Below, in pieces: positions 258-20,317 of a DNA stretch of 64,000 nucleotides (position 1 is its first letter; every line of letters begins with the position of its first letter). Below the pieces are notes generated by a model. That model was not told the DNA's origin, made no database searches, and saw only the letters and a list, made by a program, of their open reading frames with translations. The translations under genes were made by a program, and so were the position numbers. The stretch comes from an uncultured Bacilli bacterium (GTDB lineage Bacteria; Bacillota_I; Bacilli_A; RF39; UBA660), in the NCBI GenBank assembly GCA_944329365.1, contig CALVIC010000003.1, forward strand, positions 8,437 to 72,436, in the 5' to 3' direction.

Positions 258-3200
258 TTAGCAAATGTTTTCTAATACTTTTTTTATAATTTCTAATGCA
301 TATTTTCTCTTCAACCTATGGTGAAAAGCTTGATTATTATAATTTCGTAGACAATTATAACAAGAAGTGTTTTCGTCACAACAATTCTGATTAACTTTGT
401 TTTTAGCACATTTAAATACTTCTATAAACATACTCTTATCCATGATTCTTTTTACATGGCCTGCTCCGCCAGGAACATTATCAAAAACAATTAAGTCATA
501 ATTATTATATTTATTCTTTACCACTAAACCATCTATGTCTTTCCTTTCAATAGAAAATTCTTGACTAATTCCTTCTAAAATGGCATATAAAGTGGATAAA
601 GCTTTATCTTTATCGTTTAGATTTTTAATTGATATTTTGGCAACATCTGTTTTAAATTTATGTCCTAATGAAATATGCCATAAATCTTCATCCGGACAAT
701 TAAATCCCTTGAAATCTACATGATTCATTTTTATTTTTTCACTTCCATATGCCGTTTTATCAATTTTTGTATATCCACACGTTTTACACATATAGAATGG
801 ATTTTTGTTGAGAATAAGCAATTCATCATCAGAGGATGTTTCAATTGTTATATAATTATTAGCACCAATCATTAATTTGTTTTCATCTTTTTTTCCGTTC
901 CCAATGTATGATGTCATTCCTGTATAAGTTTTTTTAGGTTTTTTCCTTGTACTTTCATTGGTTTTTCCTGTTTTAAATCCATATATTGGCTCAATAAAGA
1001 AGTTGTTAATAATTTCTTCGTTAGGTGCTTCACAATATTGACATTTCTTTAATTTTTCTGGAAATAAACTTATATTTTCTCTTTCGCAAAATGGACAAGT
1101 GTAATAATAATTTCTAGCAAATTCTTGTGTTTTTGGGAGAGAAATATATCTCGATGTATACTTTATTTTATCAACAATTATTTCTGATTCGGGTGCATAT
1201 TCTGAAATAGCTATACTTAAGTCTCTACTTAGATCATAATCATTATTTATTTTACCATTATCCCATATTTCTAAATTTACTAAATCTATTGGAAATCCAT
1301 ATTTTGGTATAACATTATATTTTGTTAAATTTTTTATTACACTATCTTTTTTTATTTCGTTTACTTGTGTTTGATAATAATCTGCATTTTTAAAATCATT
1401 TTCTTCTTTAGCTTTTTCTATTTCAAAATTATATTTATTTATTGTATCAATTATATTTGTGTAAAATCCTTCTAAATAATCTCCATTATTTTTTATTTCA
1501 TCTATCCATTTATAATCAGAATACTTATTATATGTATTTGAATCTAAAATTTTTGTATTAATAAACTCGTTCAGATCATCTGGATTTTGCTCAATATATT
1601 TTTTAAATTCCTTAATTCCGTCATGGCATACTAAACTATCAATATTTTTAAAATATTCTGGATACTTTCTAAAAAAATACCCAAATGCCGTTGCCATCAA
1701 GTGTCTTAAAATAATTTTTTCATTTGTATTATTAAATTTTGGAGGTTTTATTATTCCTGAAATCATTTTATTTGGATCATCGAAATATGTATAATCATGT
1801 GATGAATAACCACAATATGTTAGTATAAAAGCAGAACTATCTTTACTTCTTCCCGCTCTTCCCGCTCTTTGAACATAATTAGCAGGTGTAGGTGGAACAT
1901 TTCTCATAAAAACCGTTTCTAGTGAGCCTATATCAATGCCCATTTCAAATGTGGTTGAACAACTAAGAATATTTATTTTTTTATCTTTAAATTCTTTTTG
2001 ATATTCTTTTGCCGTTGCTTGTGATAATTGGGCGGTATGCTCTTTAATGTTGATTCTTTCTATTTTTTTAGTCTGATATTCTTTACGATAATAATTATTT
2101 TCAAATATTTTGTCAGGGTCACATTCTTTCAATATTCCATTACAATCCTTGTTTGTACAAACATTATGAACATTATATATTGTTAATTGACCACAATTTG
2201 AACATATATAGTATTGAGTATTTTTGTAGTTATCAAGTTTATATTTACTTGCAGATATTTGATAGACTTCATCACTTATTGAATTACCACTTTCACATAT
2301 ATTACCTTCTACTCCTATTTCATTAAAGATAATCTCTATAATATTACACGCTTCTTCGTGAGAACATTGAGCAACTTTCATTATATATTTTGTATACATA
2401 TTATCTCTGGATGAATAAACAGGTAATAAACTTCTTATATTATTATATTTAGTTTCAGTCTCATTTCTTTTGGATGATGGCTGCTTTTTTAACTTTATAT
2501 AATTATCAAATCTTCTATATGAAAGATATTCTTGTTTTTCAGAATTATTTAATCCAGAAATATTATATTCAATTGCGGGCGTAGTTCTAAAAATATTAAA
2601 TAATACATTAATAATGTTTTTTAAATCGGTTTTATTAATATTATATTTTCCAAATTCATTACTGATATCTTCTTCAGAAATTTCTTCAAAGAGATCATCT
2701 AAATCTAAGGTAAAGTGAAATAATCCTAATCCTTCAGCACTATAATTTCCGTCAATATTTAATAATTCATATAATGCCGTGATCCAAGCTTGTTTATTAC
2801 TTGATATTTTTTTGTTTGTGAACAAATTATATTTTCTAATTAAAGCATCTAATTGAGATAATAAATTATCAAATTTTATAGTTTGATAGTTATTATTTTT
2901 TATAATTTCCCATATTATTCTTTTTCTTAAAAATCTTTCATGGTTTCCTTCAAAAAAGCTTGCAAAAAAACTTGCTTGTTGTCTACTATCTGAAAAAGTA
3001 ATGAATTGTTTTACATATGGTTCTTTTGCCATTTTTAAAGTTTCGTTTCTCTTAAAAAGTACTGTTTTATAATCAGTTGTTTTTTCTGGTTCGTTGTTAT
3101 CAATGGCTTTGTATAATAATTGTGCTAGAATAGCTGTTGCTTCATCTTTTCCTATATTAATACTTCTTACTATTCCATTTTTTTGATGATGTAGACAATT

Positions 3201-4934: not shown

Positions 4935-4937
4935 TTG

Positions 4938-7900
4938 CTACCTTCTTTCTACAATTAATAAACAAGAAAATATATCTGTTGCTCTATTACTTTCGATTTT
5001 ATCTAAAACTGTTCTATTGTCGAAGTCAATAAATAATCCATCACCATCTTTTGTAATACTTGCTTCTATAAGTCCATCGTTAATATCACTTGTAAAGTCA
5101 ATTTCTATCGGGTTTAAATTATTAAACATATGTTTTTGACCTTTTTTAAAAGTATAAATGTTTCCGATAAAATAAGTGTCACTTATTCTTTTTGTTATTT
5201 CAATATATGTATCATAAAGTTTATAGGTTTTGCGGGTAAAATTATTACCAATCATTTGATCAAAATCAACTGTATATATTTTAAAATACCTTCCAACAAA
5301 GTCGTCTAATGATATGTAAGAAAAATTTTCTTTATATAGAATTCTTTCTTTTCCTAATAATCCTGTTTTATCTTCTTTGATTAAAATTAAATATGTTTTA
5401 AATGAAGTTAAACCATTTACTATAAATTGTGTTTCACTACTTTCTATTTTTTTGTTAAAAATTATTTGTTTTTTTTCGTCTAATATCTCATAAGAGATAT
5501 TTCCTCGACCATAAATTGATACATTAGCTTTTAAATTCTTTGCTATTGGGTCATATTTTAAATTAGTTTTTTTTGCATTTACAAAACATTTGTTATAACA
5601 TTGTATAAGTCCTTTTACGTTATCTCCATCAAGAAATTTTAAATAAAAAATGTCTTCTTTATTATACGAAATTAACGTTCCTACATCCAATTCTTTACAA
5701 AATAAATTGTCTTTGGAATATAATGTTGTTAAAACTGTTCCATCTTTTTTTACTATATATACCTTATCATAAGCAATGCCATTTGTGACTATTTTACTTG
5801 AAAATTTAATATCTTTTGTCCAAATATATTCATTGCATCTTTTCCACATATTATTATCTATACGATATATTGGAATATTAATCGGAATTATAAATCCAAA
5901 CTCATATTTATCAAAATATATTTTATTTATGTCATTCGAATTTAAATTAATTATTTTTTCAAAAATATTTTTAGTAAAAGAAGTGCTTATTTTGACATAT
6001 AATTCATTATCAGAATATTCATCAACTAAGTAATTAAAGTCTTTGTCAACAACAACTTTAAAAACATTTGTTTTATACATTTGATTGTTTTTATGTTCCT
6101 CTATCGTAATCGTGTGAATGCCTTTTTTTAAATTGTTTATATTTATAACAAACTGCGTGCTTGCATTTTTATGTTTTTCAGTATAATTTAAATGTGTTAA
6201 TTTGTTTCTTACTCCATCTATATTTATAATGATATCATCACATGATAATTTTGTTTCATAGATTAAATATTTAATATACTTATAAATTTTCAACTTTTCT
6301 TTATTGTTGAAATAAAAAGCATTGGCTTCCACGCCGATTAAACCTGTTTTTTGTAGTGAAGAAAAACTAAATATATCATTACCAATTTTAACAGTATCTC
6401 CTTTTTTTACGTTTAAATATAAAATTTGATAATTTTTGTTTAGTAACTTATTTCTCCATGAATTTTCAATGTTAACACCATTAACGCAAAAAATAGCTAA
6501 GCCTTCATAGTCATTATTATTTTTGATTTCTCGTCCTTCTGAATTAAAAACAATATAATCTCTATATAATAAATTTTTACTATCATAAATGGTCTGATTT
6601 CCACATAATAACTTATATTCTAATTTTCCTAGAGGATTTTCAATCAATATATTCGAACATTCAATACGATATCCTCCTATAATATCGTATACATCCAAGT
6701 CTTCTTTTGAAATGATTTCATCACCATTTGAAATAACAAGTTTGAGTTTTGTATAATCATATGAGTTTTTTATTTTATGATTTGGTATTGATAAATAGAT
6801 ATTGGAACTATTTAGAAGAAATTTAGGCTCCCATCTTGATGATAATTCGATTTTTCGTTTGCTTTTCTCTTTAATCTCTTTGTTAACTTTTCTTTGCCAG
6901 ATTTCAAATCCGTAATTATAATATTTGTTATTTATAGAAGGAATTTGATTTTTCCAATAATATTCATCAATTATTTTCAAAACATTGCCACTTAATTTTA
7001 TTAAATCATTAATTCCTTTCTCATCAGTAATTAAATCTTTTGTTGTTTTAATTAATTTGTATGTTTTGTTTGTTACTTTTAAATCGATTTGATCATTTTC
7101 AAAATTATTCCCCTTAATTCCCTCATAAACAAATAATAATTCTTCTGATAAGTTTGTTTTTTCGGATATTGAATAATCAAAGTTTAGTTTATAAACATCA
7201 TATAAAAAATCAAAAAATGATGGCAAGTATTTTTGAGGTACTATGTCATTCTTTAATACAACCGAAATTATTCTTTCAGTTATTTCTTTTTGAGTATTAT
7301 ATATACTAATAATATTTCTAATTTGTCCTTCTATTTTTTGCTCTGAAAAATTATTATATATATATTTATAGATTTTTCTAACATGGTTGTAAAAATTTCC
7401 GTCATAATTAATTAATCCAATTATCGTCAAAGAAATAAATATAATGTCATAATCTATATCATATATTGAGCATTTGGTTTGCAATAATGACTGCAATTCT
7501 TCTTGTGCTTTATAGTGTATTTTATTGACTAATTTTGCATCATTAATTATATCTATTATGTCATTTCCTATTATTTCGTTATTTTTTAATTTGTACTTAA
7601 TTAGCCTTAGTTTTTTTAGATTACCATTTTCATATAATATTTCTTTAAAAGATAATATGATTTCTTTTTGTTCTTCTTTGCTCAAATAATTGTCTTTTAA
7701 GTATTTATCAATTATTTCATTAACTTTTGAAAAAAATGAATTTTCTAAATTTGATTGATTATTTTTTAACCATTTCTTTAATTTTATAATTTCTTGAAAA
7801 TTAATGATATCATCTGCTTCAATTCCTTGGATTATACCAATTAGTTCACTTTCATTATCTATTTTATTTTTAATATTATTATAATAGTTAGTAAACTTAA

Positions 7901-8111
7901 TTATTTTTTCTTTTTCTTGATTTGTTATTAAGTTATCTTTTAAAATTTGATTTAACAATTTTATAATTTTAATACAATAAATATTATTATCATTGTTGTT
8001 TTCTGTGATCCATTTTTTTAACATTTGAATTTCTTTTTCATTTATAATATTATCGTAATTTATTGAATTTAAGATTCCAAGTAATTCAGAAAATTTATTA
8101 TAATACTTCAT
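4938..8111 (-). CDS. Large protein of unknown function; DruH-like by size and position only
   Basis: 1057 aa. The N-terminus has two ~58-aa helical repeats (aa 17-73 and 97-155). The rest is Asn/Lys/Ile-rich and looks beta-rich. No catalytic motif recognised. GGGAG RBS about 10 nt upstream of the ATG. Stop TAG at 4938-4940 lies 3 nt before the helicase ATG. Confidence 0.4.
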   Translation of the reverse strand: MKYYNKFSELLGILNSINYDNIINEKEIQMLKKWITENNNDNNIYCIKIIKLLNQILKDNLITNQEKEKIIKFTNYYNNIKNKIDNESELIGIIQGIEADDIINFQEIIKLKKWLKNNQSNLENSFFSKVNEIIDKYLKDNYLSKEEQKEIILSFKEILYENGNLKKLRLIKYKLKNNEIIGNDIIDIINDAKLVNKIHYKAQEELQSLLQTKCSIYDIDYDIIFISLTIIGLINYDGNFYNHVRKIYKYIYNNFSEQKIEGQIRNIISIYNTQKEITERIISVVLKNDIVPQKYLPSFFDFLYDVYKLNFDYSISEKTNLSEELLFVYEGIKGNNFENDQIDLKVTNKTYKLIKTTKDLITDEKGINDLIKLSGNVLKIIDEYYWKNQIPSINNKYYNYGFEIWQRKVNKEIKEKSKRKIELSSRWEPKFLLNSSNIYLSIPNHKIKNSYDYTKLKLVISNGDEIISKEDLDVYDIIGGYRIECSNILIENPLGKLEYKLLCGNQTIYDSKNLLYRDYIVFNSEGREIKNNNDYEGLAIFCVNGVNIENSWRNKLLNKNYQILYLNVKKGDTVKIGNDIFSFSSLQKTGLIGVEANAFYFNNKEKLKIYKYIKYLIYETKLSCDDIIINIDGVRNKLTHLNYTEKHKNASTQFVININNLKKGIHTITIEEHKNNQMYKTNVFKVVVDKDFNYLVDEYSDNELYVKISTSFTKNIFEKIINLNSNDINKIYFDKYEFGFIIPINIPIYRIDNNMWKRCNEYIWTKDIKFSSKIVTNGIAYDKVYIVKKDGTVLTTLYSKDNLFCKELDVGTLISYNKEDIFYLKFLDGDNVKGLIQCYNKCFVNAKKTNLKYDPIAKNLKANVSIYGRGNISYEILDEKKQIIFNKKIESSETQFIVNGLTSFKTYLILIKEDKTGLLGKERILYKENFSYISLDDFVGRYFKIYTVDFDQMIGNNFTRKTYKLYDTYIEITKRISDTYFIGNIYTFKKGQKHMFNNLNPIEIDFTSDINDGLIEASITKDGDGLFIDFDNRTVLDKIESNRATDIFSCLLIVERR

Positions 8112-8237
8112 TTTATAATACTCCCATCACACAAACACTTCTCATAATACATTTATTATACAATGAATCGTTATTATTTTATATATTTTCAATAGAAATT
8201 ATTGCTTTTTTTCAACCAGTGTGTTATAAATAATTTT

Positions 8238-10730
8238 TTATTTTAAACATTTCATTATTTTTTCTTCGTCAGGTATTTCATCTGTTTTGCATCTTATTAA
8301 TGGAAGACAAGCTTTTTCAAATATTTTATTTTTTAACTCATCATTATGAACTTGATGAATATTTTCTTTGTTAAATGGATTATGATAACCACCATCTACT
8401 TCGATGGCTAAACGATATTCAGAAGATGCTCTATCATATATTAAAAAGTCAACATGGGAATGAATGTTCTTTTTGAATTTCATTTCTTCTTTTGTTAGTG
8501 AATCTAAGTCTTCAATGATTTCATCTAATGGTACATGAGTTATGATATCATAACCATCTATATGATTTTTGTTTAATATTTTTAATAATTCTTCATAAAA
8601 TATATCTTCACTTATAATTCCTGTCCTTTTAGCTATTTTTTGTCTTTCTCTATAATACTCTTTATATAGCAAATCAAAACAACTGTGTAGTTTACTGTTT
8701 ACTATTTTACCATCTTGATACTTTATGTACTTAATTAGATCTTGGATATTACCATTTGTATTAGTTATGGCAGAGTCATTGACTACTAGAATAAACTTAT
8801 TTATAGCTCTTGAAACAACAACATTTAATCTATTAGGTTGATCAGTAAAACTCTTGATTTTATTGTCGACACTTGAAAATATAATTATATTTTTTTCTCT
8901 TCCTTGAAATTTATCTACTGTGTCAGCCTGAACGTTAGAATAGTTTTTGAATTCTTGTTTTAATAGATTACTTTGATTTACATATGGAGAAATAATACCA
9001 ATCGATTCATCATTATATGTTGAAGGAAGTATTTCTTCTCTGATTATATCTAATTGTCTTCTATTTACGTGATCTCGAGCGTGGTTACCAACGCTTGTAA
9101 CATACATTTGTAATGTATCTTTAGATGGTTTTGAATTAGATAAAATAATTAATTCATTATTATAAAATTTTAAGTTACAAAAGTTTATTATTTTTGGATT
9201 GCACCGGTAATGTTCTTTTAACATAGTTTTGGTTATATCAGGATAAAGTTCTATAACTGAAGATAATAGGTTATGATTTCGATAACGATATTCGTTTGAT
9301 ATTTTATACTTTAACCAGATTTGATCACTTGTAATGGCATTTTCATTTGTAACAACGTTGGATAGCTGTTTTAAATCACCAACAATAACAACATTTTTCG
9401 CACATGATAGTGATAATACCGCAGTTACTAAGTCTACCTGTGATGATTCATCGACAATTATATAATCATACATAATATTTTTTGATAAGCTTGATACTAA
9501 AGAATAGGTTGTACTTAAAATAACAGGATAATCTTTAAGAAACTCATTTGATATTCTTTTTAAATCAGATTTTTCATATTTATTTCGCTTAGCCTTTTTA
9601 TATCTTTTGGCAAGTCTATGTTTAAATATTTGCATCGATATTTCTGTATAATGTTTCATTTCTTCTTTAATATTATAGTTATTTAAACTTGTTTTTAATC
9701 TGTTAATTTCTTTTGTTAGATTAGTAATACTTTTTTTATAATAAAGATTTTTTAATTCTAAAATTATATCATTTAAGTTATTGTCAAAAATATCAAATGG
9801 TAAAAGTCCATATTTAATAAAATATTTTATTTTTGAATATATAGAGATTGTCGATTTGTTTTCTAATTCAAGCCATAATTTTAGTATGTTTTTATAATTT
9901 GGATTACGCCACCATTTTATAGTAATATTTTTTGTTCTTGTTTTATAATATTTTGTAAATTGTTTTGATTCTAATTTTATGGCTTCTAGATGCTGAATAT
10001 CTTTGGCAAGTTTATTTTGATCTTCTAGTTTTCTATTTAACTCATATTCTTTATTGTTTAGAAAATTTATTTTGTTTTCAGCTTCTTCATCAGTTAGTAA
10101 CCATGCATCTAAGTTTGGTAAATCTTTTTGATTTTCAATAAATTCTGTTTTGTTTTTTTCTTTGCCAAGAAAAGCAACCAGAAAATCTAAATTATTGCTT
10201 TTTAACTTATCATAAACATTTTGAATAGCTGCATTATTATTGGAAACAACGGCAACCGTTTCTCCATTCATAACTAAATTAGAAATAATATTTAAGATTG
10301 TTTGAGTTTTTCCTGTTCCTGGAGGACCTTCTATAACGCTTATTCTATTTGTAATTGCTCTTTCTGTAGCCAGTTTTTGGCTTTGATTAAAGCCGAAGGG
10401 AAACCTTACATGTCTAACCATTCTATATGCTGGTGGTAAAGTACCTTTTAAATAACAATTTAAAATACTATCTTTATTTAAGTTATCTAACTTTTTATAT
10501 CTTGAACCAAGAACATTATATTCACCAACCACTATGCTTATTTTTTCAGCTAATTCTTTAAAATATTTTAGATTGTTTTCAAAATTATTGTTTTCTATTT
10601 TTATTCTTTCATTTGAATAATTATATTGTTTATCACTGCTTTTAAATTTAATAATATAGTTTTTATTATTTAATTTTATACTTTCAATCTCTTTTGTTTT
10701 ATCTACATCGTCAATTAAAATTCTTCTCAT
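8238..10730 (-). CDS. SF1 (Upf1/DNA2-like, COG1112-type) helicase fused to a C-terminal DUF559/Vsr-like restriction-endonuclease-fold domain
   Basis: Helicase motifs: Walker [14 protein letters not shown], motif II YIIVDESSQVD, VVIVGDLKQL, EHYRCNPKI, DKFQGREKNIIIFS, LNVVVSRA. The C-terminal ~130 aa contain HVDFLIYDR...YRLAIEVDGGYH. The ORF-track start at 10736 is TTG. ATG at 10730 with GGAG 7 nt upstream is preferred. Confidence 0.65.
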   Translation of the reverse strand: MRRILIDDVDKTKEIESIKLNNKNYIIKFKSSDKQYNYSNERIKIENNNFENNLKYFKELAEKISIVVGEYNVLGSRYKKLDNLNKDSILNCYLKGTLPPAYRMVRHVRFPFGFNQSQKLATERAITNRISVIEGPPGTGKTQTILNIISNLVMNGETVAVVSNNNAAIQNVYDKLKSNNLDFLVAFLGKEKNKTEFIENQKDLPNLDAWLLTDEEAENKINFLNNKEYELNRKLEDQNKLAKDIQHLEAIKLESKQFTKYYKTRTKNITIKWWRNPNYKNILKLWLELENKSTISIYSKIKYFIKYGLLPFDIFDNNLNDIILELKNLYYKKSITNLTKEINRLKTSLNNYNIKEEMKHYTEISMQIFKHRLAKRYKKAKRNKYEKSDLKRISNEFLKDYPVILSTTYSLVSSLSKNIMYDYIIVDESSQVDLVTAVLSLSCAKNVVIVGDLKQLSNVVTNENAITSDQIWLKYKISNEYRYRNHNLLSSVIELYPDITKTMLKEHYRCNPKIINFCNLKFYNNELIILSNSKPSKDTLQMYVTSVGNHARDHVNRRQLDIIREEILPSTYNDESIGIISPYVNQSNLLKQEFKNYSNVQADTVDKFQGREKNIIIFSSVDNKIKSFTDQPNRLNVVVSRAINKFILVVNDSAITNTNGNIQDLIKYIKYQDGKIVNSKLHSCFDLLYKEYYRERQKIAKRTGIISEDIFYEELLKILNKNHIDGYDIITHVPLDEIIEDLDSLTKEEMKFKKNIHSHVDFLIYDRASSEYRLAIEVDGGYHNPFNKENIHQVHNDELKNKIFEKACLPLIRCKTDEIPDEEKIMKCLK

Positions 10731-10864
10731 ACACAAACTCCATTACTTTCTTAGTATATCATAATAAAAATAAAACACCAATTTTGATATGATGTTTTGA
10801 ATATTATATTAATTAAAATTTATATGATAAAAAGATTATATTCTAATTAAAGAATTTTTTCTTT

Positions 10865-13800
10865 TTAAATTTCTGATAATTCTTTACTAATTTCTCTCAT
10901 TGAACCAATTTGCTTTGAAAACATTTTATCCCATGCATCTAAACATTTTACTATTATATCTTCTTGATTAGTTTCATACACAGCATCAAATAATTTTATT
11001 ATGAGATAATTTAAATCATTATATTTATAATAATGTGATGATGGATTGTTTATGTCATATTGTTCTATAGTGATATTTATAACGTTAAATATTAAATCAC
11101 TATATTTAATAACGTTGTTAAATTTCTTTGTTAAAATATGAATAAATTTCTCTATAAATTCCTGTGAATCTAATGTTTTAAGTAATTCTATAATAAACTC
11201 ACTATCTTCCGATAAGCTTAATCCATTTTCTCCAAACAATTTATATGGATTTATTCTAACATCTTTGTATGTCGCAAATATTTTTATGATTTGTTTTATT
11301 TTCTCTTTATATTTATCGTATTTTATGTAAACCAATAACATGTCTATAACTGATTCTTTTATGATTTTATCATTACTCTTATTTAATATATCATCTTCGA
11401 ATTTACTATAAAAAAGATAAAAATCAACGAGTAGATAAGAATAAATTCTTTTTATATATTCACTATTAATATTTATTCCATGTAAAATTATTTTTATTAT
11501 GTCTTCTTTATAAGTTACACTCTTTTTGTATATAAAATGAAGAATATTCCTACTTGAATTATATCCATAAATATAATCATTAGAATATAGAGAAATTATA
11601 TTTCTGCTTGCAAAATCAAAATCATATTTTAAAAGCCAGCTTAAAATCGTCATACTTGAATATTTGATAACTTCATCTTTTGACATAATCATATCTTCAG
11701 CTACTTCAATAAATTCACTTGCATATTTTAAACTGTTTGATAATATATTACCAATGGCTGAGGCAAGCTTATAAATAGACGAATTTATTACTTTCACTTC
11801 TAATACTTCAGCTTTATCTCTATAACCATTATCGTTATCAAGAATATAATTACTATCAATTTTATTTTCTTTTATATCACTATATATTTGCATTAACATT
11901 TTTATTGTTCCTTTGTTCCAATTGACTTCTTCTTTTTTAGCAATGATTTCACAAATAAATGGTGCATATTTGTAATTGTCATTATATTTAAAAGTATTAA
12001 ATAGTATTTCCAACTTATCAATAGAAATCTCATCCAATACATTAGATGAAGCTAATGTGCTATATAATGTAATAACATATTCCGTAATAATAACAGAAGA
12101 ATTTATTATAAACAAGTCAATAAATGCATTAGGATTTTGCTGTATATTTATTGATAATGACGACTGAAATTCATATAAACTTCTATCTATGAATACGCCT
12201 TTTTTGCTATCATATATAGATTCATGATTATTTATTATTTTTTTATTTGTTAATATTTTAAGCCAACTTTGCATACTAATTTCTTTGTCCGCAATTGGTG
12301 ATATAACACTGCCATATTCAAAATGTTTTAAATCAAAAATCGAAAATTTTATATTATAAAATTTTCTATTCAAGACTTGTTTTAGCTGTTGAGCTTTGCT
12401 ATTTAAATATTTATCAGGTATTACATTTAATATTTCATATTGAAAATCTCCCCAATAGCTTATATAATTAGCATTACTGAAATCTTTTTTCTTTAGTTCA
12501 ATACCTTTTTTACATCTTTCAATTATATCTTCTGGCTTATAATTTATAACATTAGTCATCATTTTGTCTAAGGTATCTTTGTCAATATGATTTATAAATT
12601 TTTTTATTATTTTTTTTAGTATACTTATTGACTGTTTTTCTTTGCTAGTATATTCAAAACAGTTATTATTAATATCATTAAATAAATAACTAATTACTTC
12701 ATTTGCAGCTTTTAATGGCATACATAAAAATCCATATAAAATCAACTCATTACAAATATAAAATCCTTTATTAAGATAACACTTAAATAACTTCCAAAAT
12801 TCTTTATAGTCTGTCTCCACTATATTTTTAGTTGCTTCTTTTAACAATGAAATTATAATTCTCTGGACTGTCACTTCATTCCAATCATTGTTATTCCAGT
12901 CGTATAAATTAAACTTTTCTTTTGTTTTTGGAATTAATGGTAATAATGTATTAATAATTGTTATATTTTCTTTAACATTATGTTTTCCTTCATAATCAAT
13001 AAGATGCTTTTCAGAATATATTATATTTTGCTTTTTTAATTGCAGATGTTTTCCTAAAAATTCAATATATTTAATAGCTCTATATTCATTACATTTTATT
13101 AGTTCATCCAAATCCAAATATGAATTTATTAATAAATCGCTATACTTTTCATATATTTTTAAGCGTAGTTTGAATAATTCGTCAGTATCATATACTACGT
13201 CAATAGGTAATACTTCATATAATTCTTTATCAATTTGGTTATCTATAAAAAGATATTTTTTTATGAAATTTGTTTCAATTTTGTCATAATTATGATTAAT
13301 ACTTTTTAATAAATCAATCACATATTTTTTCTTTAAATGGTCTTGAATCCATTTATCAAAAACTCCGTTCGTTATTAATAGTTCAATCATTTCTTGATGA
13401 TTCATAAAGACTGTGTTTATAAAAATTTCAAACAAAGCTTTTTTATTATAATTATCAAGTATATATTGTTTGATTTTACCAGATAAATTCGTAGAAAGTC
13501 CTAACACTTCAAATGCAACATACTTCATATATGTTCGAATATTTTTACTATTAATAATTGAGTTTATACAATTCAAAAATTTCTCATCATCAATTTCATA
13601 TATTCGTTCTAAAAACATCTGTAATTGATATCTCTTATTTGGTAATTGCTTATTATAATCACCTATAAGAGATTCTATTGGTTTTTCTTCAAAATACTCT
13701 TCTATCATTTTTTCTACTGAAAAATAATCTAATAAACTTTGATGAGAAAAGGATATCATATTATCACTGCGTATTAAAAATGATTGTGAAAGTAAAAATT

Positions 13801-15400
13801 CAATAGAATGAGTATAATTACTTAATAAAAACTCTGGTAATGATATTTTACCTAATTTATTCATTTTATTAACTATTTCATTTTTTAAATTCGATAAATT
13901 GCATTCAGAAATACCTTTTTTTTCTCCTTCTTTTATAAGCTGTTGCCACCAGCTTGATATTAAATCACAGGTTGTACGAATGCCAGTTATATCATTTTCT
14001 TTTTTTATTTTCATAAAGATAAATAAATTGCTCGGAATTTTCAATAATTTTTTTAATTTAGAATTATAATTTTTATATTCTGGTCCAACAATAGAATTTA
14101 CGCAATCATCATTTAAACTATTAATATTGATTTTGACCCAGTTTTTTCTATTCTTTTCTATCATTCCTATAAACGACGGGTCGTTTTCAACATCAAAAGT
14201 TCTGCATACTAATATAATAGAAATTTTAATTTTTCTATCAAAATTGATATTTCTAATTTCTTCAATAATATCATTGCAAATATCTATGGAACTTCGACTA
14301 TGTATAGTAGTCCATCTTAATGCATCTAATTGATCAAATATTAAAACACATTTTTTGTTATTTGAAAATTTATCTAAAATTGTTGAAAGATATGTAGAAA
14401 ATCCTAATTTTTTACTCCATTCTAAACTATTATATTCTGGCATATATTTATCTAATTTAATTGCTAAATATTGATAGTCATTGGTTTCTAAGAAATTAAT
14501 TAATCCATATATTATTCCACTTTTACCATATCCTGCTTTGCCTGATATCATGATTGATTTTTCGTTATTAATGTTTGCAATTATATTTTCTAATTCTGGT
14601 CTATTTATATAATTATTATTTATTAATTTTATGCTTTCTTTAAATTTTTCATTTAATCTTTTTATAATATTAAAATTTGAGTCATCATTAGCTAGAGTGT
14701 TTAAAAGCATTTTATTTGTTTTAAAAAAAGAATACAAAAATGATTTGTCAATCTCTTTACCCATTATATCTTCGTTACATACCAAATCCACAATTTTTCT
14801 ATAGTTATCTTTTGGGTTTCCATGAAATAGCATCTTAATTTGCATTAATATGAATTCTGTTATTGTATCATCAGGCATATTATTTACTTCTGTTCTTCGA
14901 AGATAATCCATTGCTTTTTTAACGTCTTCCATATTATTGTAATCAAGTTCAAGTTCATGACAATATTTTTTAAAATCAGAAAAAGTTGTTGTGCTTTTTT
15001 TTATCTGCTCATTATAAAATAATTTAACATCTCCATTGTTGTTTTTTGCTCTGCTTATTAAATCTGATAGACTTATAAAGGATATTGGAGATTCAAGAAC
15101 TACAACATTATCTTTAGACCTGTCTAAGTGAAATTTCCATTTTTTTAGTAAATCGTAGGATTTTAGTCCAGAAAAAGTCCAATTATTATTACTTCCATTA
15201 CGAAATTTACACTGAATATATTTTTTAGTACCATCAAAATTTGTAATGACTATATCAGTTGCTACTTCGTTATCACCTAAGCCTTCAAACATACAGCTAC
15301 TAACTTTTTCTTCAACAACATCTAATAATGACTTTATAATGCAATTTCTTTCATATCTATTTCCTAATTTATCTGCCCTTCCAGCTGGTTCACTAGCCAT
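10865..15400 (-). CDS. Nuclease-NTPase-repeat giant: N-terminal Cap4/DUF4297-like PD-(D/E)xK nuclease, central P-loop STAND-like NTPase, about 1000-aa alpha-helical repeat C-terminus (Avs-like)
   Basis: 1511 aa. N-terminus reads LGNRYERNCI...FEGLG...ATDIVITNFDGTKKYIQCKF. Walker A ISGKAGYGKSG (aa 286-294). Walker B-like CVLIFDQLDAL. The remainder is leucine/isoleucine-rich helical sequence. AGGAGG RBS upstream of the ATG. Confidence 0.55.
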   Translation of the reverse strand: MASEPAGRADKLGNRYERNCIIKSLLDVVEEKVSSCMFEGLGDNEVATDIVITNFDGTKKYIQCKFRNGSNNNWTFSGLKSYDLLKKWKFHLDRSKDNVVVLESPISFISLSDLISRAKNNNGDVKLFYNEQIKKSTTTFSDFKKYCHELELDYNNMEDVKKAMDYLRRTEVNNMPDDTITEFILMQIKMLFHGNPKDNYRKIVDLVCNEDIMGKEIDKSFLYSFFKTNKMLLNTLANDDSNFNIIKRLNEKFKESIKLINNNYINRPELENIIANINNEKSIMISGKAGYGKSGIIYGLINFLETNDYQYLAIKLDKYMPEYNSLEWSKKLGFSTYLSTILDKFSNNKKCVLIFDQLDALRWTTIHSRSSIDICNDIIEEIRNINFDRKIKISIILVCRTFDVENDPSFIGMIEKNRKNWVKININSLNDDCVNSIVGPEYKNYNSKLKKLLKIPSNLFIFMKIKKENDITGIRTTCDLISSWWQQLIKEGEKKGISECNLSNLKNEIVNKMNKLGKISLPEFLLSNYTHSIEFLLSQSFLIRSDNMISFSHQSLLDYFSVEKMIEEYFEEKPIESLIGDYNKQLPNKRYQLQMFLERIYEIDDEKFLNCINSIINSKNIRTYMKYVAFEVLGLSTNLSGKIKQYILDNYNKKALFEIFINTVFMNHQEMIELLITNGVFDKWIQDHLKKKYVIDLLKSINHNYDKIETNFIKKYLFIDNQIDKELYEVLPIDVVYDTDELFKLRLKIYEKYSDLLINSYLDLDELIKCNEYRAIKYIEFLGKHLQLKKQNIIYSEKHLIDYEGKHNVKENITIINTLLPLIPKTKEKFNLYDWNNNDWNEVTVQRIIISLLKEATKNIVETDYKEFWKLFKCYLNKGFYICNELILYGFLCMPLKAANEVISYLFNDINNNCFEYTSKEKQSISILKKIIKKFINHIDKDTLDKMMTNVINYKPEDIIERCKKGIELKKKDFSNANYISYWGDFQYEILNVIPDKYLNSKAQQLKQVLNRKFYNIKFSIFDLKHFEYGSVISPIADKEISMQSWLKILTNKKIINNHESIYDSKKGVFIDRSLYEFQSSLSINIQQNPNAFIDLFIINSSVIITEYVITLYSTLASSNVLDEISIDKLEILFNTFKYNDNYKYAPFICEIIAKKEEVNWNKGTIKMLMQIYSDIKENKIDSNYILDNDNGYRDKAEVLEVKVINSSIYKLASAIGNILSNSLKYASEFIEVAEDMIMSKDEVIKYSSMTILSWLLKYDFDFASRNIISLYSNDYIYGYNSSRNILHFIYKKSVTYKEDIIKIILHGININSEYIKRIYSYLLVDFYLFYSKFEDDILNKSNDKIIKESVIDMLLVYIKYDKYKEKIKQIIKIFATYKDVRINPYKLFGENGLSLSEDSEFIIELLKTLDSQEFIEKFIHILTKKFNNVIKYSDLIFNVINITIEQYDINNPSSHYYKYNDLNYLIIKLFDAVYETNQEDIIVKCLDAWDKMFSKQIGSMREISKELSEI

Positions 15401-15695
15401 ATTTTACCTCCTACAGCAAAAGATAGTATAGTATTATGTTATCTTGTGCGTCATAATAGTTAATAAGTTTATCTGATTTTTTTAAATAATCTTCACTATG
15501 CCATAATATTGTTTTATAAAAGATAAACTGAAATCATCTAATATTTCTCATTTTTTACAATATTTATTTTTATCTATAACTAAAAAACGCAGCACAAAAA
15601 CATAAAGCCTGTACTAGCGCTCTTTTATATATAATATAATATTTTAGAACTGATTGTCAGATAAACTAATGAATTTATCAAAAAAAATTATGATT

Positions 15696-17570
15696 TTATT
15701 GATTAATTTTACTTTTAAAATAATATTGTAATTTTTTGTTTGTACAGTACACATAACAACCTTTCATTCCTCTTGTCATAAGTGTTCTATATGTGTTTTT
15801 TATAATTTTATCTGCTATTTCATTTGCTACCTCTTGTCCTTGCTCTTTTGCAATTTTATGTATTCCTTTCAATGATTGATCAGTTTTAGCTCTTTTTGTA
15901 TAATCAGTAACAATATGACCATCTTCATACCTAATATCATCCCCAATTATTACTCCAACATAATCAAATTCTAATCCCTGACAAGTGTGAATACAACCAA
16001 CTTCATTTACTGATGTTGAATCAATTGCCCAGGTTTGAGAATTACCTAAATTCCAGCTCATTTCAAAATTATATTCTGGGATTACTATATCGTGAACATT
16101 AGAATTATTTTTACCATTGCTAATCCAATTCCAACAATATCCTGCAACCAATCTTGATTTATTATTTATTTTATTTTTTTCTTCTATTAATCTTCTTAAT
16201 TCATTTGGATTATCTATTACTTTAAAATCATAATCAAAATCCATACCATCGAAGTTTGCTGTTTTTCTTATTTCTAAAACGTTATCTAGCCAAGCAAGAT
16301 AACCATCTGACCCATTACATCTAAATTGACTTTCTAATTCAACTACTTTAATTCCGGCGTTTAATTCTTTAGCAAATTTTTTTATTTCATCTACTGACCC
16401 AATATCTTTTAATGTAACTTTTTGGTCTTCATCAATGAAAAATATTGAAAAATTTGAAGCATTAATAATTTCTTTAATTTGATTTTCTCCTAGATTTTGG
16501 AACATTCCTGATTTTGCATTTAATCTATGTGCTTCATCGACAATTAAGCAATCAACTTCATTGCTTTCGGCTTCTGTAAAATTTCCTGAACCTTGAAATA
16601 AATTGTTAATATATGACATTTTGAAAGAACCTTTTAATTTATCTCTAAATACTGCTCTTGGAGCAGCGTTCTTTGTTACATAAAAACATGTCATATTTCG
16701 GCTAGTAAGTTCTACTAATAAGTTAATTGCTAAAACTGATTTTCCAGTTCCCGGTCCTCCTTGTACTACCAATACATTTTTCTCATTTGCAGATAAAGTA
16801 TCGATTGCCATTCTAATAGCATCTTCATAAATGACCTTTTGCTCATCAATCATATTAAATTCTTTGTTGCCCTGTAACATTTTTGTAAGAGAGTCTTGAA
16901 GTCGTTTTGATGGTCTTATTTTTCCATTTTCAATTTTATATAGAGTTTCTCTATCGTCTCCTTCAAGAATATATTTTTTTATAAAATTTCTTAATTTTAT
17001 AAAATCATTTGCTCCAAACATAGGTGCTTCATTTATATATTCTTGATATTGACTACTACAAATCGGGTCATCTTTACTTAATACATAGTTATGTAAAAAG
17101 GCACAAGGATATAGGCCTATATCTTCTAATTGTACAGTTTCATTAAAATCTCTAATTAAATTTGCATAACTCATAGCTTGATAGGAAGGATGAGTCACTT
17201 CTCTTATGGCATGGCCAGTAAATGTTGAAACTATTCCGTCTTTACCTTCAACTGCTTCACATTTTTCCCACTGCTTTAATTCTATAATAATAACCGAATT
17301 TTTTTTATTTTTATCTCTTCCTGATAAAATAAAGTCTATTCTTTTAGATGTTGTTGGAATATTAAATTCGATTGCTACACCTGCATTATCTGGTATTTCT
17401 TTGTCATCTAAGACTCCTCTCATATATTGCATAGAATTCTTCCAAGAATTTAATTGGGGATCACTTGCTCTTCCAAAATACTTTTGATACTTTTCATATA
17501 TTTTATTTACAATTAAATTTAAATTTACATCATTAATGAATCCTGATTTTACTCCTTCATACACCAACAT
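15696..17570 (-). CDS. DUF2075 family protein (Schlafen-group-III-like ATPase/helicase with an N-terminal nuclease-like module)
   Basis: 624 aa. The N-terminus is typical of the family: SWKNSMQYM...IEFNIPTTSKRIDFILSG...VIIIELKQWE. Walker A VVQGGPGTGKSVLA, Walker B CLIVDEAHRL, then FFIDEDQKV. AAGGAG RBS. Start lies 28 nt after the MazG stop. Confidence 0.75.
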   Translation of the reverse strand: MLVYEGVKSGFINDVNLNLIVNKIYEKYQKYFGRASDPQLNSWKNSMQYMRGVLDDKEIPDNAGVAIEFNIPTTSKRIDFILSGRDKNKKNSVIIIELKQWEKCEAVEGKDGIVSTFTGHAIREVTHPSYQAMSYANLIRDFNETVQLEDIGLYPCAFLHNYVLSKDDPICSSQYQEYINEAPMFGANDFIKLRNFIKKYILEGDDRETLYKIENGKIRPSKRLQDSLTKMLQGNKEFNMIDEQKVIYEDAIRMAIDTLSANEKNVLVVQGGPGTGKSVLAINLLVELTSRNMTCFYVTKNAAPRAVFRDKLKGSFKMSYINNLFQGSGNFTEAESNEVDCLIVDEAHRLNAKSGMFQNLGENQIKEIINASNFSIFFIDEDQKVTLKDIGSVDEIKKFAKELNAGIKVVELESQFRCNGSDGYLAWLDNVLEIRKTANFDGMDFDYDFKVIDNPNELRRLIEEKNKINNKSRLVAGYCWNWISNGKNNSNVHDIVIPEYNFEMSWNLGNSQTWAIDSTSVNEVGCIHTCQGLEFDYVGVIIGDDIRYEDGHIVTDYTKRAKTDQSLKGIHKIAKEQGQEVANEIADKIIKNTYRTLMTRGMKGCYVYCTNKKLQYYFKSKINQ

Positions 17571-17598: not shown

Positions 17599-17916
17599 TT
17601 ATTGTAATTTTGTATATTTTGTACTTACTCCCTTAGCTTTATCTATGGGATATTTTTTAGCAGTAATTTTCATCTTATCTAAAATAATTTGTTCGGGGTC
17701 TGCTCCCAATTTATCTGCAAGCAATAATGAATAATTAAGTACATCAGCAAGTTCTGATTTTACCTCATCAATATTATAATTAGAGTTCCATTGAAAGCAT
17801 TCTAATAGTTCGCCTGCCTCTATAGAAATTGATTTTGCTAAATTCTCTGGACTATGAAATTGATCCCAGTCTCGTTCTTCAGTAAATTGTTTTATCTCTT
17901 TTATAAGATTTTTCAT
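17599..17916 (-). CDS. MazG-like nucleotide pyrophosphohydrolase
   Basis: 105 aa. ERDWDQFHSPENLAKSISIEAGELLECFQW with the ExxE metal motif is typical of small MazG-like pyrophosphohydrolases. Confidence 0.8.
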   Translation of the reverse strand: MKNLIKEIKQFTEERDWDQFHSPENLAKSISIEAGELLECFQWNSNYNIDEVKSELADVLNYSLLLADKLGADPEQIILDKMKITAKKYPIDKAKGVSTKYTKLQ

Positions 17917-18123
17917 TTTTACATCTCCTAAAATAACTTTTTCATAATTAAGTTTTATTTTCTTATTCTATATAGTAATGTTTTAAATCCTTTTTACTTC
18001 ATCAATCATTAGTTTTCCTAATTCGTTCTCTTTTTATGACTTTTTCACTCATATAATCACCACTGATATTTATGATTTATTATAGCATGTTAATTTATAA
18101 TTAGTAAATCAATATATCAATGA

Positions 18124-18684
18124 TTACTTTTTATTTAGCTCATTTTTTACCCATCCAAGTAGTTCAGTTAATACTTTCTCTCTATTAACTGATGTATTTA
18201 CAAATTTTAGCTTATATTTTTTTGAATCTTTTTCAAATTGTTGGCTTTTAGCAATTTCTCTTTCAGCTTTTTCTAAAAGTGTTTCATCTGATATATTTCT
18301 AGTCCAATCTTTTAATCTTTGATAAGTTCTCCAGTTAGAAAGGCATTCTTCTTTAGTTAAGTCCGGGTAACCAAAAACTATAATAATATTATTTTCAAAC
18401 AATTTATAATCTTCCGGTTTAAAATCGACGGTATCTAGAATAACGTATAAACTTTCACTATATTTAACACTATAATCAAAATACGATTTTAAGAATTTTC
18501 GATACTCAAGGATTTCTTTCATAAGCCCTGTTTTTACTGTTTTATCTTTGTATATTTCATCTCTGTATGCAAGTCTTACTAAATCACCTGATATAATCTG
18601 ACATGACTTAAGTTCTTTCATTAATATTTGTGAAAACGTACTTTTACCTGCTCTAGAGGCACCAATTAAAACTATTCCTTTCAC
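18124..18684 (-). CDS. Small P-loop NTPase/kinase-like protein
   Basis: 186 aa. Walker A at the extreme N-terminus (VLIGASRAGKSTF). GTG start lies 1 nt after the TAA of the upstream ORF, which suggests translational coupling. Confidence 0.5.
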   Translation of the reverse strand: MKGIVLIGASRAGKSTFSQILMKELKSCQIISGDLVRLAYRDEIYKDKTVKTGLMKEILEYRKFLKSYFDYSVKYSESLYVILDTVDFKPEDYKLFENNIIIVFGYPDLTKEECLSNWRTYQRLKDWTRNISDETLLEKAEREIAKSQQFEKDSKKYKLKFVNTSVNREKVLTELLGWVKNELNKK

Positions 18685-18685
18685 G

Positions 18686-19600
18686 TTAGATTCCTTTCAT
18701 ATAATTTTTTAGCTTTTCAAATATCGGAAGATTACCTTTATAACTTTTTGGAGAAATTGGACTAGGGTGATATATGGGCAATACTTTATATCCATTTACT
18801 TCATAAATGTTACCTACAACTTCAGAAAACTTTTTAAATTTAAAGCTTAATAGATTTCTAGTTGGAAACTCTCCTAAAGTAATTATTAATTTGGGGTTTA
18901 ATATTTCTAATTGTTTAAGCATTATGTTTTTACAGTTAGTAGAACATATTTTTAGGCTTTTTCTTTCTATTGGATAACATTTTACTGATTCTATAAAAGT
19001 AGTTTCAAATATATCTTTATTTATAATATCAAATAGTTTTTGTAATATAACTCCGCTAGGTAATATTTTACCATTTATATCTTTCCATAACATGTGACTT
19101 TTTCGCCATCCATTGTTTGCTGGAGCTTCTCCGATTAAAACAATATCATTATTTTTACCCAAAAATACAGTTGATGAGTTTGGAAACTTTTCAACTAAGG
19201 CTCCACATTTATGACACTTATATACTTCTTTATCTACTTCTTCTAATAACTTCTTTTTAACTTTATTTTTTAGTGTTTGATATCTATTATTTGTATCTTC
19301 CGTCAAAATTTTTTCTTTATCAATTATTTTGTAATCTTCGCAGTTTATTTCTTTAGCAAATTGTTCTTTTGTTAAATCAACTATTTGATTATTTATTAAA
19401 TTAAAGTAATGACTGATCCCATCAACTTTTGTTTTGGCTATTTCTCCACCAAAATAATCATTTACTACTAACGAAGTGATTGCACACATGCCTAAAGTTT
19501 TATTTGATTCATTCCATCGATTTTGTACTTTTATGTAACATAAATCTTTAGAATAACATTTTAATAAAGATTTCTTTAATTTTTCTATTGTCATAAACAT
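18686..19600 (-). CDS. Fusion of a YunG-like N-terminal domain with a uracil-DNA glycosylase superfamily (family 4/5-like) domain
   Basis: 304 aa. N-terminal LGMCAITSLVVNDYFGGEI...HYFNLINNQIVDLTKEQF resembles B. subtilis YunG. C-terminal half has VLIGEAPANNGWRKS, VKCYP and LPIYHPSPISP, which are UDG-superfamily motifs. Confidence 0.6.
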   Translation of the reverse strand: MFMTIEKLKKSLLKCYSKDLCYIKVQNRWNESNKTLGMCAITSLVVNDYFGGEIAKTKVDGISHYFNLINNQIVDLTKEQFAKEINCEDYKIIDKEKILTEDTNNRYQTLKNKVKKKLLEEVDKEVYKCHKCGALVEKFPNSSTVFLGKNNDIVLIGEAPANNGWRKSHMLWKDINGKILPSGVILQKLFDIINKDIFETTFIESVKCYPIERKSLKICSTNCKNIMLKQLEILNPKLIITLGEFPTRNLLSFKFKKFSEVVGNIYEVNGYKVLPIYHPSPISPKSYKGNLPIFEKLKNYMKGI

Positions 19601-19731
19601 ACACCCGTTACAAATATTATAACAGATTTAATTTTGATTGTCTTTTTTATTAGAAAATTCTATATGTTTATCCTTTTGTTTTAGATTAAAGAAGTGTTAT
19701 AATAGAATTAAATGAAGGTGAGGTTTTTATT

Positions 19732-20178
19732 ATGATAGATAGAGTTTTAATGGAATTATACGATGAATATGAAAAAGGTAATATGGAAAGTATTATAGAA
19801 TTTACTAATAAAACATTCCCTAATGATGGTACTGGTAAGCTTTTTATAGGCTGCCTTTTAATACTTTTCTCTAATGATGTCGGAGCTTATAAACCGAGAT
19901 ATTTTGCAACAAGAGAACGTTTATATTCAATTGTTTTGGCCGCCAAAGAAAAGATTGGAAACACTAATTTACTCGCGTTTTATATCGATAGAATAAATAG
20001 AAGTAAAGGAATAAGTAAGTACTTAGCTGATATTGTCAAAGATAAAAATATAGACAAATATGCAGATTTAATTATAGAATACTTAGATCAGTTTAAACCA
20101 AACTTCGTTTCAAATATTAAAAAGAATTATTCTGATAAGATTGAAGAATATATTAAAAATAATGAACAAAAAAACTAG
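19732..20178 (+). CDS. Hypothetical protein
   Basis: 148-aa ORF with GGTGAGG RBS, followed by a terminator. No recognisable motif. Confidence 0.45.
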   Translation: MIDRVLMELYDEYEKGNMESIIEFTNKTFPNDGTGKLFIGCLLILFSNDVGAYKPRYFATRERLYSIVLAAKEKIGNTNLLAFYIDRINRSKGISKYLADIVKDKNIDKYADLIIEYLDQFKPNFVSNIKKNYSDKIEEYIKNNEQKN

Positions 20179-20208
20179 GATTTTCAAATGAATTTCCTAG
20201 TCTTTTTT
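20174..20208 (+). terminator. Rho-independent terminator
   Basis: Stem ACTAGGA (20174-20180) pairs with TCCTAGT (20195-20201). A T-run follows at 20203-20208. The structure overlaps the TAG stop. Confidence 0.55.
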
Positions 20209-20240
20209 ATTATAAAACCATATGGTTTATCTTTCAAAAA

Positions 20241-20317
20241 TGGGGCGGAATATCGGATTCGAACCGATGCATAATGGAACCACAATCCACCGTGTTAACC
20301 CCTTCACCAATTCCGCC
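20241..20317 (-). tRNA. tRNA-His (anticodon GUG)
   Basis: Reverse complement is GGCGGAATTGGTGAAGGGGTTAACACGGTGGATTGTGGTTCCATTATGCATCGGTTCGAATCCGATATTCCGCCCCA. Acceptor stem GCGGAAT/ATTCCGC. An extra G-1 pairs with C73, the His hallmark. Anticodon loop TTGTGGT, T-loop TTCGAAT, encoded CCA. Confidence 0.95.

Follow-up and report, generated by a model that had tools for sequence, protein, structure and literature searches.

A 64,000-nucleotide (nt) stretch of DNA from an uncultured Bacilli bacterium (NCBI GenBank assembly GCA_944329365.1, contig CALVIC010000003.1, positions 8,437 to 72,436 of the forward strand; hereafter, the window) raises the question of whether one of its genes, a complete open reading frame (ORF) at 10865..15400 on the minus strand that runs from an ATG start through 1511 amino acids (aa) to a stop codon, encodes an antiviral STAND (Avs) protein and, if it does, whether that protein belongs to a known kind of Avs or to a new system. 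A preliminary description, made from the letters alone, had proposed an effector, an NTPase and a repeat sensor in the order found in antiviral STAND proteins. Every layer of that proposal is supported by the comparisons reported here, including matches of Pfam nSTAND3 to 20 of the 20 homologues scanned (best E = 1.3e-7), Foldseek matches to Avs3, Avs4 and Avs5, and homology to Salmonella enterica Avs7 (SeAvs7). With high confidence we regard the protein as an Avs-type nuclease-STAND-sensor defence protein and, judging from sequence comparison and structural models, it is very probably a stand-alone antiviral STAND protein of an Avs7-like lineage. It is a divergent family member of a known Avs kind, not a new system.

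A word-index search identified more than 400 homologues, the best 120 of which are all about 1505-1544 aa long and align at 100% coverage with 30-79% identity. Given these homologues, in which the motif residues are kept, the ORF and its motifs are not the product of chance, and the gene is therefore real. The start codon is correct, because the N-terminus (MASEPAGRADK) lines up with the N-termini of homologues. A Shine-Dalgarno sequence, AGGAGG, stands 6 nt ahead of the ATG (15407..15412; read from the letters, on the minus strand, as are all features of the gene given below), and a gap of 295 nt (15401-15695) separates the gene from the preceding one. The ORF, its own ribosome-binding site and this upstream region can be read directly from the sequence, as had been stated.

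Nuclease and NTPase domains and their relationship to SeAvs7

Comparison of a profile built from 40 homologues with all PDB sequences yields essentially one entry, 9n00_A ('AAA family ATPase', 1523 aa; E = 1.6e-14). The structures 9N00, 9N01 and 9YIX represent SeAvs7 (accession WP_079981830.1), either in the apo form or with the major capsid protein of phage ZL19 and EF-Tu (Lee et al., bioRxiv 10.64898/2026.01.04.697583). SeAvs7 consists of a Cap4 nuclease, a STAND NTPase and a bilobed helical sensor, which envelops the HK97-fold capsid protein with both lobes and favours shape complementarity over specific contacts; the capsid-bound protein binds ATP and forms an asymmetric tetramer via its NTPase and Cap4 domains, upon which double-stranded DNA (dsDNA) is degraded, and inactivation of the nuclease abolishes both defence and toxicity (bioRxiv 10.64898/2026.01.04.697583). 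In one Avs7 clade, EF-Tu acts as an enhancing cofactor (bioRxiv 10.64898/2026.01.04.697583).

A profile of 94 family sequences matches SeAvs7 with E = 6e-35 in two collinear pieces, profile positions 49-642 matching SeAvs7 46-625 (independent E-value, i-E = 4.9e-29). The domain order of the two proteins is identical, their lengths are close (1523 aa for SeAvs7 vs. 1511 aa), and both have a single-gene organisation. Collinearity extends from the nuclease through the NTPase into the first sensor helices and is found again in the C-terminal lobe (C-lobe) of the sensor, and the two proteins share the D...QCK motif of the nuclease as well as the P-loop Lys, the Walker B Asp, an Arg and the winged-helix His of the NTPase. 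Identity between SeAvs7 and the window protein is, however, only about 12-25%, the N-terminal lobe (N-lobe) of the sensor (about 650-985) shows no detectable similarity, and the hosts belong to different phyla (Bacillota and Fusobacteriota for the family vs. Proteobacteria for SeAvs7).

The N-terminal effector, predicted to be a PD-(D/E)xK nuclease of Cap4 type with a helical extension, occupies 14696..15400 (aa 1 to about 235). Its sequence follows the pattern GRADKLGNRYE(17)...E39...D49...Q63-C64-K65, in which the active-site motif D49...Q63-C64-K65 (15206..15256) was delimited from conservation and from the alignment with SeAvs7. The E...D...QxK layout that had been noticed at the N-terminus is present, and E17, E39, D49, Q63, C64 and K65 are invariant in the alignment of the 40 homologues (30-79% identity). 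Among the 94 sequences, which extend down to 22% identity, E17 is invariant, and E39, Q63, C64 and K65 are more than 90% conserved. An AlphaFold2 (AF2) model of aa 1-600, built from a 20-sequence alignment, has a mean predicted local distance difference test score (pLDDT) of 87.4, with about 90 in the N-terminal domain. The core of this domain has the order alpha-beta-beta-beta-alpha-beta (helix 15-29, strands 35-38, 50-53 and 59-64, helix 84-94 and strand 99-104), in which E17 belongs to helix 15-29, D49 directly precedes strand 50-53, and strand 59-64 includes Q63 and is directly followed by K65; this agrees with the PD-(D/E)xK layout of a helix-1 Glu, a strand-2 Asp and a strand-3 (D/E/Q)xK.

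Comparison of a profile of this domain alone (23 sequences) with PDB sequences gives the N-terminal domain of SeAvs7 as the sole match (E = 7.3e-5); D49 pairs with SeAvs7 D46, and QCK 63-65 with SeAvs7 QCK 60-62. Pfam Cap4_nuclease (PF14130, DUF4297) is matched by 4 of the 23 aligned homologous N-domains, these being some of the divergent homologues (best E = 2.7e-7). On these sequence comparisons, the domain can soundly be assigned to the PD-(D/E)xK nucleases, with the Cap4 domain of SeAvs7 as a homologue, and the Cap4 label is transitive: the earlier reading as a Cap4/DUF4297 nuclease is borne out by fold, by homology to SeAvs7 and by the matching homologues, but not by a match of the protein's own sequence. 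The glutamine in place of the usual acidic residue is no argument against activity, because SeAvs7 has the same D...QCK. The segment that follows the nuclease core, previously taken for a linker of about 200 aa, turns out to be folded into helices (pLDDT about 90) that align with the N-terminal domain of SeAvs7 up to residue about 190-240. By the same transitive Pfam evidence, CBASS Cap4 and Lamassu LmuA carry the same type of effector domain; the remainder of the window protein, a STAND NTPase and a sensor, differs from both, and no PADLOC CBASS or Lamassu model was matched by it at E up to 0.1.

The central module (13691..14617; aa about 262-570), delimited from Pfam, PADLOC, the SeAvs7 alignment and Foldseek, is, as judged from sequence and model, a STAND NTPase with nucleotide-binding, helical and winged-helix subdomains that is homologous to the SeAvs7 NTPase. 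The Walker A motif GKAGYGKSG, with K293 and S294, is present as described (14516..14542), its span being aa 287-295 and not 287-294, and the Walker B motif VLIFDQLD, with D356 and D359, likewise (14324..14347; aa 352-359); the residues of both motifs named in the preliminary description are invariant in the 40 homologues. Invariant in all 94 sequences are G290, G292, K293, D356, Q357, D359, D403, H553, Q585 and D1491, and R400 is more than 90% conserved. To map residues between the two proteins, the window protein and a reconstructed SeAvs7 fragment were aligned to the family model. In this alignment, SeAvs7 K291/T292 correspond to K293/S294 of the P-loop, D358 to D356 (Walker B, ATP-Mg coordination), R395, which contacts the nucleotide, to R400 (14201..14203), and H545 to H553 (13742..13744), the histidine of the winged-helix subdomain (FSHQSLLDYF). 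The ATP-Mg-coordinating residues of SeAvs7, including D358, were named by Lee et al., who also show a sequence logo for His545 (bioRxiv 10.64898/2026.01.04.697583).

Direct scans of the window protein gave only sub-threshold P-loop matches in Pfam and no match in NCBIfam. The only PADLOC model that it matches is PDC-M54A (E = 2.3e-11), and this match is partial (aa 270-565 vs. model positions 307-609 of 1621). The same model (PADLOC-DB v2.0.0) is matched by 10 of 18 family sensors and by a SeAvs7 fragment (E = 1.7e-9); the match of the window protein is partial and weak, however, and PDC-M54 is catalogued as a multi-gene candidate.

In a Foldseek search of the PDB with the model of aa 1-600, the best match is SeAvs3 (PDB 8DGC; Gao et al. 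2022; E = 4e-13 over 668 columns), and EcAvs4 (PDB 8DGF), NLRC4, EfAvs5, NLRP9 and NLRP3 follow. SeAvs3, which acts as a dsDNA-degrading tetramer, likewise combines a Cap4-type nuclease, a STAND NTPase and a helical repeat sensor, but it is not matched at the sequence level, its terminase-binding sensor lies outside the top 50 matches of the sensor described below, and Avs3 proteins are about 2000 aa long. EcAvs4 is the second-best structural match of the N-terminal half, but the window protein carries a Cap4-type and not an Avs4-type N-terminal domain, and the portal-binding sensor of Avs4 is unrelated. The nearest characterised relative of the window protein is Avs7, and not any of Avs1-4.

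The C-terminal sensor and its possible ligand

The C-terminal sensor (10868..13690; aa 571-1511) was modelled as aa 561-1511 (pLDDT 83.9; predicted template modelling score 0.55), and nearly all of it is helical. Its roughly 940 aa are predicted to fold as an alpha-solenoid with a small beta element at aa about 1031-1072, so that the earlier statement of about 1000 aa of helical repeats is right as to the solenoid and misses the beta element. Comparison of this model with the PDB by Foldseek gives just generic HEAT/ARM solenoids (importins, CAND1 and condensin HEAT subunits), with template modelling scores of at most 0.24. No resemblance to the TPR sensors of Avs1-4, against which the preliminary description had suggested a comparison, was found, no Avs1-4 chain being among the top 50 matches.

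The strongest-conserved sensor motifs, WGDxQxEL and SPI..K..S...W, lie in the segment aa 989-1119 (12044..12436; delimited from hhalign and the conserved motifs), which separates the diverged first half of the sensor from the C-lobe, and G984, Q987, R1012, K1039 and W1046 are invariant in the 40 homologues. This segment is collinear with about 986-1110 of SeAvs7-like proteins in local hhalign comparisons (E = 6e-5 to 3e-4, vs. 0.41 for a reversed-template control), for which the SeAvs7-like alignment was assembled from partial sequences and a broken Aeromonas gene, a word-index search with a reconstructed SeAvs7 fragment (residues 46-558) having returned only fragments of less than 900 aa. The C-lobe (aa about 1070-1480; 10961..12193, approximate and taken from profile positions 1078-1486) is, on sequence comparison, homologous to the C-lobe of SeAvs7 (1057-1486): it forms the second profile domain in the search of all PDB sequences (1078-1486 to SeAvs7 1057-1486, i-E = 0.0057), the family profile matches SeAvs7 1203-1506 (E = 1.2e-5), and pairwise phmmer comparisons match SeAvs7 to 37 family members in this region. 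The only EF-Tu contact of SeAvs7 that is visible in the alignment, which starts at SeAvs7 1057, is D1059, and it aligns with non-conserved positions of the family.

The broken Aeromonas gene comes from Aeromonas caviae (CP120942.1; L009:5726-10638). It shares about 72% identity with SeAvs7, is broken up into three ORFs (108, 836 and 302 aa), has the transposase gene of an insertion sequence (IS) behind it, and gives the impression of a copy in decay.

Several points weigh against the reading as an Avs protein of an Avs7-like lineage. The sensor N-lobe (aa about 650-985) has no similarity to SeAvs7-like proteins in profile-sequence or profile-profile comparisons, a sensor-only profile matches no PDB sequence, and no PADLOC model of Dsr1, a protein reported to have the same sensor as Avs7 (Lee et al., bioRxiv 10.64898/2026.01.04.697583), was matched when 18 family sensors were scanned; sharing of the Avs7 ligand is therefore not established. 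The library used in the Foldseek search of the sensor evidently lacked the SeAvs7 entries (9N00), and hence that search includes no comparison of the sensor fold with SeAvs7. The protein's own N-terminal domain still fails to match Pfam Cap4_nuclease when E-values as high as 5 are admitted, and in the literature we found no experiment on any member of the family. Weighed together with the collinearity described above, we consider that the protein probably belongs to the same lineage as Avs7; strict membership in Avs7 is likely, not proven. A relationship of the family to Dsr1 was considered and rejected (0 of 18 family sensors match).

The main rival explanation is that the protein is an Avs-type STAND nuclease with a specificity other than that of Avs7, whose diverged N-lobe senses another phage protein or a perturbation of the host. 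In its favour are the same absence of similarity over aa about 650-985, of a PDB match to the sensor-only profile and of a Dsr1 match, and also the finding that the different phage proteins sensed by related STAND scaffolds number at least 14 (Lee et al., bioRxiv 10.64898/2026.01.04.697583). Nevertheless, the first helices of the sensor, its segment aa 989-1119 and its C-lobe have collinear, homologous counterparts in SeAvs7, and total length and domain boundaries are near-identical. Moreover, the lobes of SeAvs7 hold the capsid protein by shape complementarity, such that the sequence can drift while the ligand stays unchanged. We therefore consider a different specificity rather unlikely. A narrower version, in which nuclease, NTPase and sensor C-lobe are retained in the family as an Avs7 chassis and the N-lobe has been re-targeted to a non-capsid protein of Bacillota or Fusobacterium phages, appears unlikely as well. 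The preliminary description had suggested that the sensor could recognise something new; any such recognition may be confined to the N-lobe.

Under the Avs7-like reading, which we prefer, a mechanism can be proposed by analogy, with each step taken over from SeAvs7 and with homology, fold and residue conservation as the observations behind it. In the uninfected cell, the protein would be an ADP-bound, auto-inhibited monomer. During infection, the C-terminal alpha-solenoid would bind a newly made phage protein, which, if SeAvs7 is a guide, would be the HK97-fold major capsid protein. Binding would open the NTPase module, permitting the exchange of ADP for ATP and oligomerisation via the NTPase and nuclease domains, and the assembled Cap4-type PD-(D/E)xK nucleases would then cut dsDNA indiscriminately, so that phage replication would be stopped and the cell sacrificed. 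The major capsid protein as trigger is a tentative proposal to which, arguing from SeAvs7, we give somewhat less than an even chance, and EF-Tu as a cofactor is doubtful.

If the relationship holds, Avs7-type capsid-sensing STAND nucleases would extend to low-GC Gram-positive and Fusobacterium genomes, and the gene is a well-defined single-gene candidate with clear mutants in the nuclease (D49 and K65), in ATP binding (K293) and in the switch (H553). Finding the trigger of the diverged N-lobe would tell whether an Avs7-like chassis can be re-targeted; a re-targeted N-lobe, if real, would be a new Avs specificity, its ligand having been changed by the replacement of one half of a bilobed sensor. 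Apart from this question, the gene belongs to a class of defence genes that is ordinary and has been catalogued before.

Family distribution and exchange of effectors

A search with the sensor alone of 1.84 billion cluster representatives identified 377 relatives, nearly all of them about 1500 aa long and with the sensor at the same position. In a collection of species-representative genomes, a relative is encoded in 236 matched stretches, of which 80 loci were kept. These come mostly from Clostridia, Lachnospiraceae, Bacilli, Paenibacillus, Streptococcus and Erysipelotrichaceae, with one from Mycoplasmatota and one from Thermoguttaceae; the Fusobacterium copies of the family come from the protein search. 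The nearest relatives among the kept loci are found in metagenome-assembled genomes of uncultured gut Bacilli (53-63% identity). The family of approximately 1510-aa proteins is thus conserved, mainly in Bacillota and Fusobacterium.

One member, WP_105177080.1 of Clostridium cagae, is seed 368 of the 656 in Table S1 of Lee et al., where SeAvs7 is a separate seed (299). Its NTPase is plainly of the same family as that of the window protein (GKAGQGKSG, AIKLD, ILDQLDALRWT and VCRTYD), and because this protein is a seed, the family has already been catalogued. Lee et al. further list 3,272 curated Avs7 homologues (Table S7) and 9,097 proteins with an Avs7 sensor (Table S8) (bioRxiv 10.64898/2026.01.04.697583); in the portion of these supplementary lists that was covered, the accessions of family homologues had no match. 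As far as we have seen, the family is catalogued in that survey and not evidently characterised.

A constant NTPase-sensor chassis combined with swapped effectors is an established hallmark of Avs families (Lee et al., bioRxiv 10.64898/2026.01.04.697583), and the same kind of exchange is found among the relatives. The N-terminal domain of the Clostridium gasigenes relative, like that of one from an uncultured Clostridium, is the nuclease of EcAvs4 (8dgf_A 2-121, E = 2.7e-63), joined to the same NTPase-sensor. The relatives with the Avs4-type nuclease (L077:8473-12843 and L086:1554-5918 among the related loci) have the architecture of the C. cagae seed. Relatives from three Bacilli, Sporosarcina, Neobacillus and Chungangia (L071:9464-13822, L072:9467-13852 and L075:9476-13849) carry, instead of the nuclease, an N-terminal domain of about 175 aa that has a hydrophobic start and no significant Pfam match. 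In a distant relative, P0149 (1476 aa), the N-terminal 237 aa contain the motifs TAKHV, DLVII and GLSGSG, which, on motif reading, have the look of a trypsin-type His/Asp/Ser triad; this protease-like domain had no sequence match in the PDB.

For the shorter sensor-bearing proteins (about 960-1380 aa), an NTPase-less architecture was considered and rejected, as 4 of the 7 proteins scanned have an NTPase near the N-terminus; these four are either truncated or devoid of a complete N-terminal effector. Among the others, one (1741 aa) has a longer N-terminus and two are without a match in the NTPase region. The shorter proteins that were scanned also match PDC-M54A.

Genomic context and autonomy of the gene

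GC content in the window is 0.22-0.26 over 1-16 kb, 0.26-0.28 over 16-20 kb and mostly 0.28-0.36 beyond, a rise which suggests that the low-GC stretch is an acquired island beside a tRNA-His gene. Within it, five large genes at 258-17570 all lie on the minus strand with short gaps between them. Beside the Avs7-like gene, the island holds a DruE homologue and three further genes of helicase or ATPase type that match defence models, a setting in favour of a defence function. A Druantia-like pair at 258-8111 consists of the DruE homologue of 1558 aa (PADLOC DruE1, E = 4.5e-181), which has DEAD, Helicase_C and MrfA Zn-binding domains, and a 1057-aa gene that lies 3 nt ahead of it; the 1057-aa product matches no PADLOC model (DruA-D, DruH, DruM, DruF and DruG among them), no Pfam model and only sub-threshold NCBIfam models. 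A superfamily 1 (SF1) helicase of 832 aa (AAA_11/AAA_12) with a C-terminal DUF2726 nuclease-like domain is encoded at 8238-10736, 128 nt downstream of the Avs7-like gene, and its best matches among defence models are Mokosh MkoC/MkoA and Hhe. Upstream of the Avs7-like gene, at 15696-17570, lies the gene for a DUF2075/Schlafen group 3 helicase (624 aa, E = 2.6e-107), which has weaker matches to PDC-S41, AbiO and Nhi. The identical 1511-aa protein is encoded in three metagenome contigs, in which the neighbours are the same as far as the contigs reach.

The arrangement of these genes raises the possibility that the protein is a subunit of a multi-gene system, together with the SF1 helicase-DUF2726 gene, with the DruE operon, or as one half of a PDC-M54 A+B pair. 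The short gaps between the five same-strand genes (258-17570), the absence of a visible terminator-like site between the gene and the downstream helicase gene, and the origin of the PDC-M54A model in a multi-gene candidate would all fit such a system. Comparison with related loci argues against it. The window neighbours are absent beside 86 related loci (L004-L089, the relatives with 53-63% identity included), with the exception of one weak and partial match to the SF1 helicase (L037), and among 135 immediately adjacent genes from 34 genomes, the commonest flanking family occurs only 4 times. None of the four large neighbour proteins that were scanned matches PDC-M54, and PDC-M54 is not one of the 25 commonest PADLOC families among the same 135 neighbours. 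Genes that recur at the flanks include type I restriction subunits, PDC-S05, PbeA, mad2/mad5 and serine recombinases, as well as housekeeping genes such as that for Val-tRNA synthetase, and the Fusobacterium copies are flanked by housekeeping genes. We accordingly regard membership in a multi-gene system as improbable and largely excluded. As no neighbour gene is conserved, the system consists of a single gene, which is best interpreted as a defence unit in itself, moving from one variable locus to another. A conserved partner gene was rejected on the same survey (135 genes, 34 genomes; 86 loci), and carriage by a phage or plasmid was rejected as well, there being no phage match and only distant and partial plasmid matches.

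Downstream of the homologue in Fusobacterium polymorphum comes the gene for a 430-aa AAA_14/DUF4143 ATPase (L004-L006:14683-15975), and the two look like a two-gene insertion among housekeeping genes.

A role outside defence, in which the STAND ATPase would be a regulator or scaffold and its N-terminal domain an inactive nuclease-like fold, is very improbable: the Q in place of the usual acidic residue of (D/E)xK, a score below the Pfam Cap4 model and the many prokaryotic STANDs that are not defence proteins (Lee et al., bioRxiv 10.64898/2026.01.04.697583) speak for it, whereas SeAvs7, with the same QCK, is an active nuclease essential for defence, the motif residues are invariant across the family, relatives exchange the domain for the Avs4 nuclease, and the gene lies within a defence-type island.

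With regard to transcription of the Avs7-like gene, a terminator-like hairpin followed by a U-run lies 3' of the preceding DUF2075 gene (15582..15625, minus strand; RNA folding energy -17 kcal/mol, z = -2.6 vs. shuffled sequences), although it is not among the sites of the consensus terminator scan. This hairpin behind the upstream gene suggests separate transcription of the Avs7-like gene. Promoter-like matches are about as frequent as chance would give (53 sites vs. 54 expected in DNA of this composition), and promoter prediction is uninformative because the DNA is very AT-rich. The promoter of its own that the preliminary description had assumed is accordingly favoured by the hairpin and not by the promoter-like matches, and own transcription of the gene is plausible.

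At the inner edge of the low-GC stretch, 17599-20316 contains a MazG-like gene (105 aa), a gene for a 186-aa P-loop protein and one for a YunG/UDG-family protein (304 aa), and the tRNA-His gene (20241-20316) follows these small genes.

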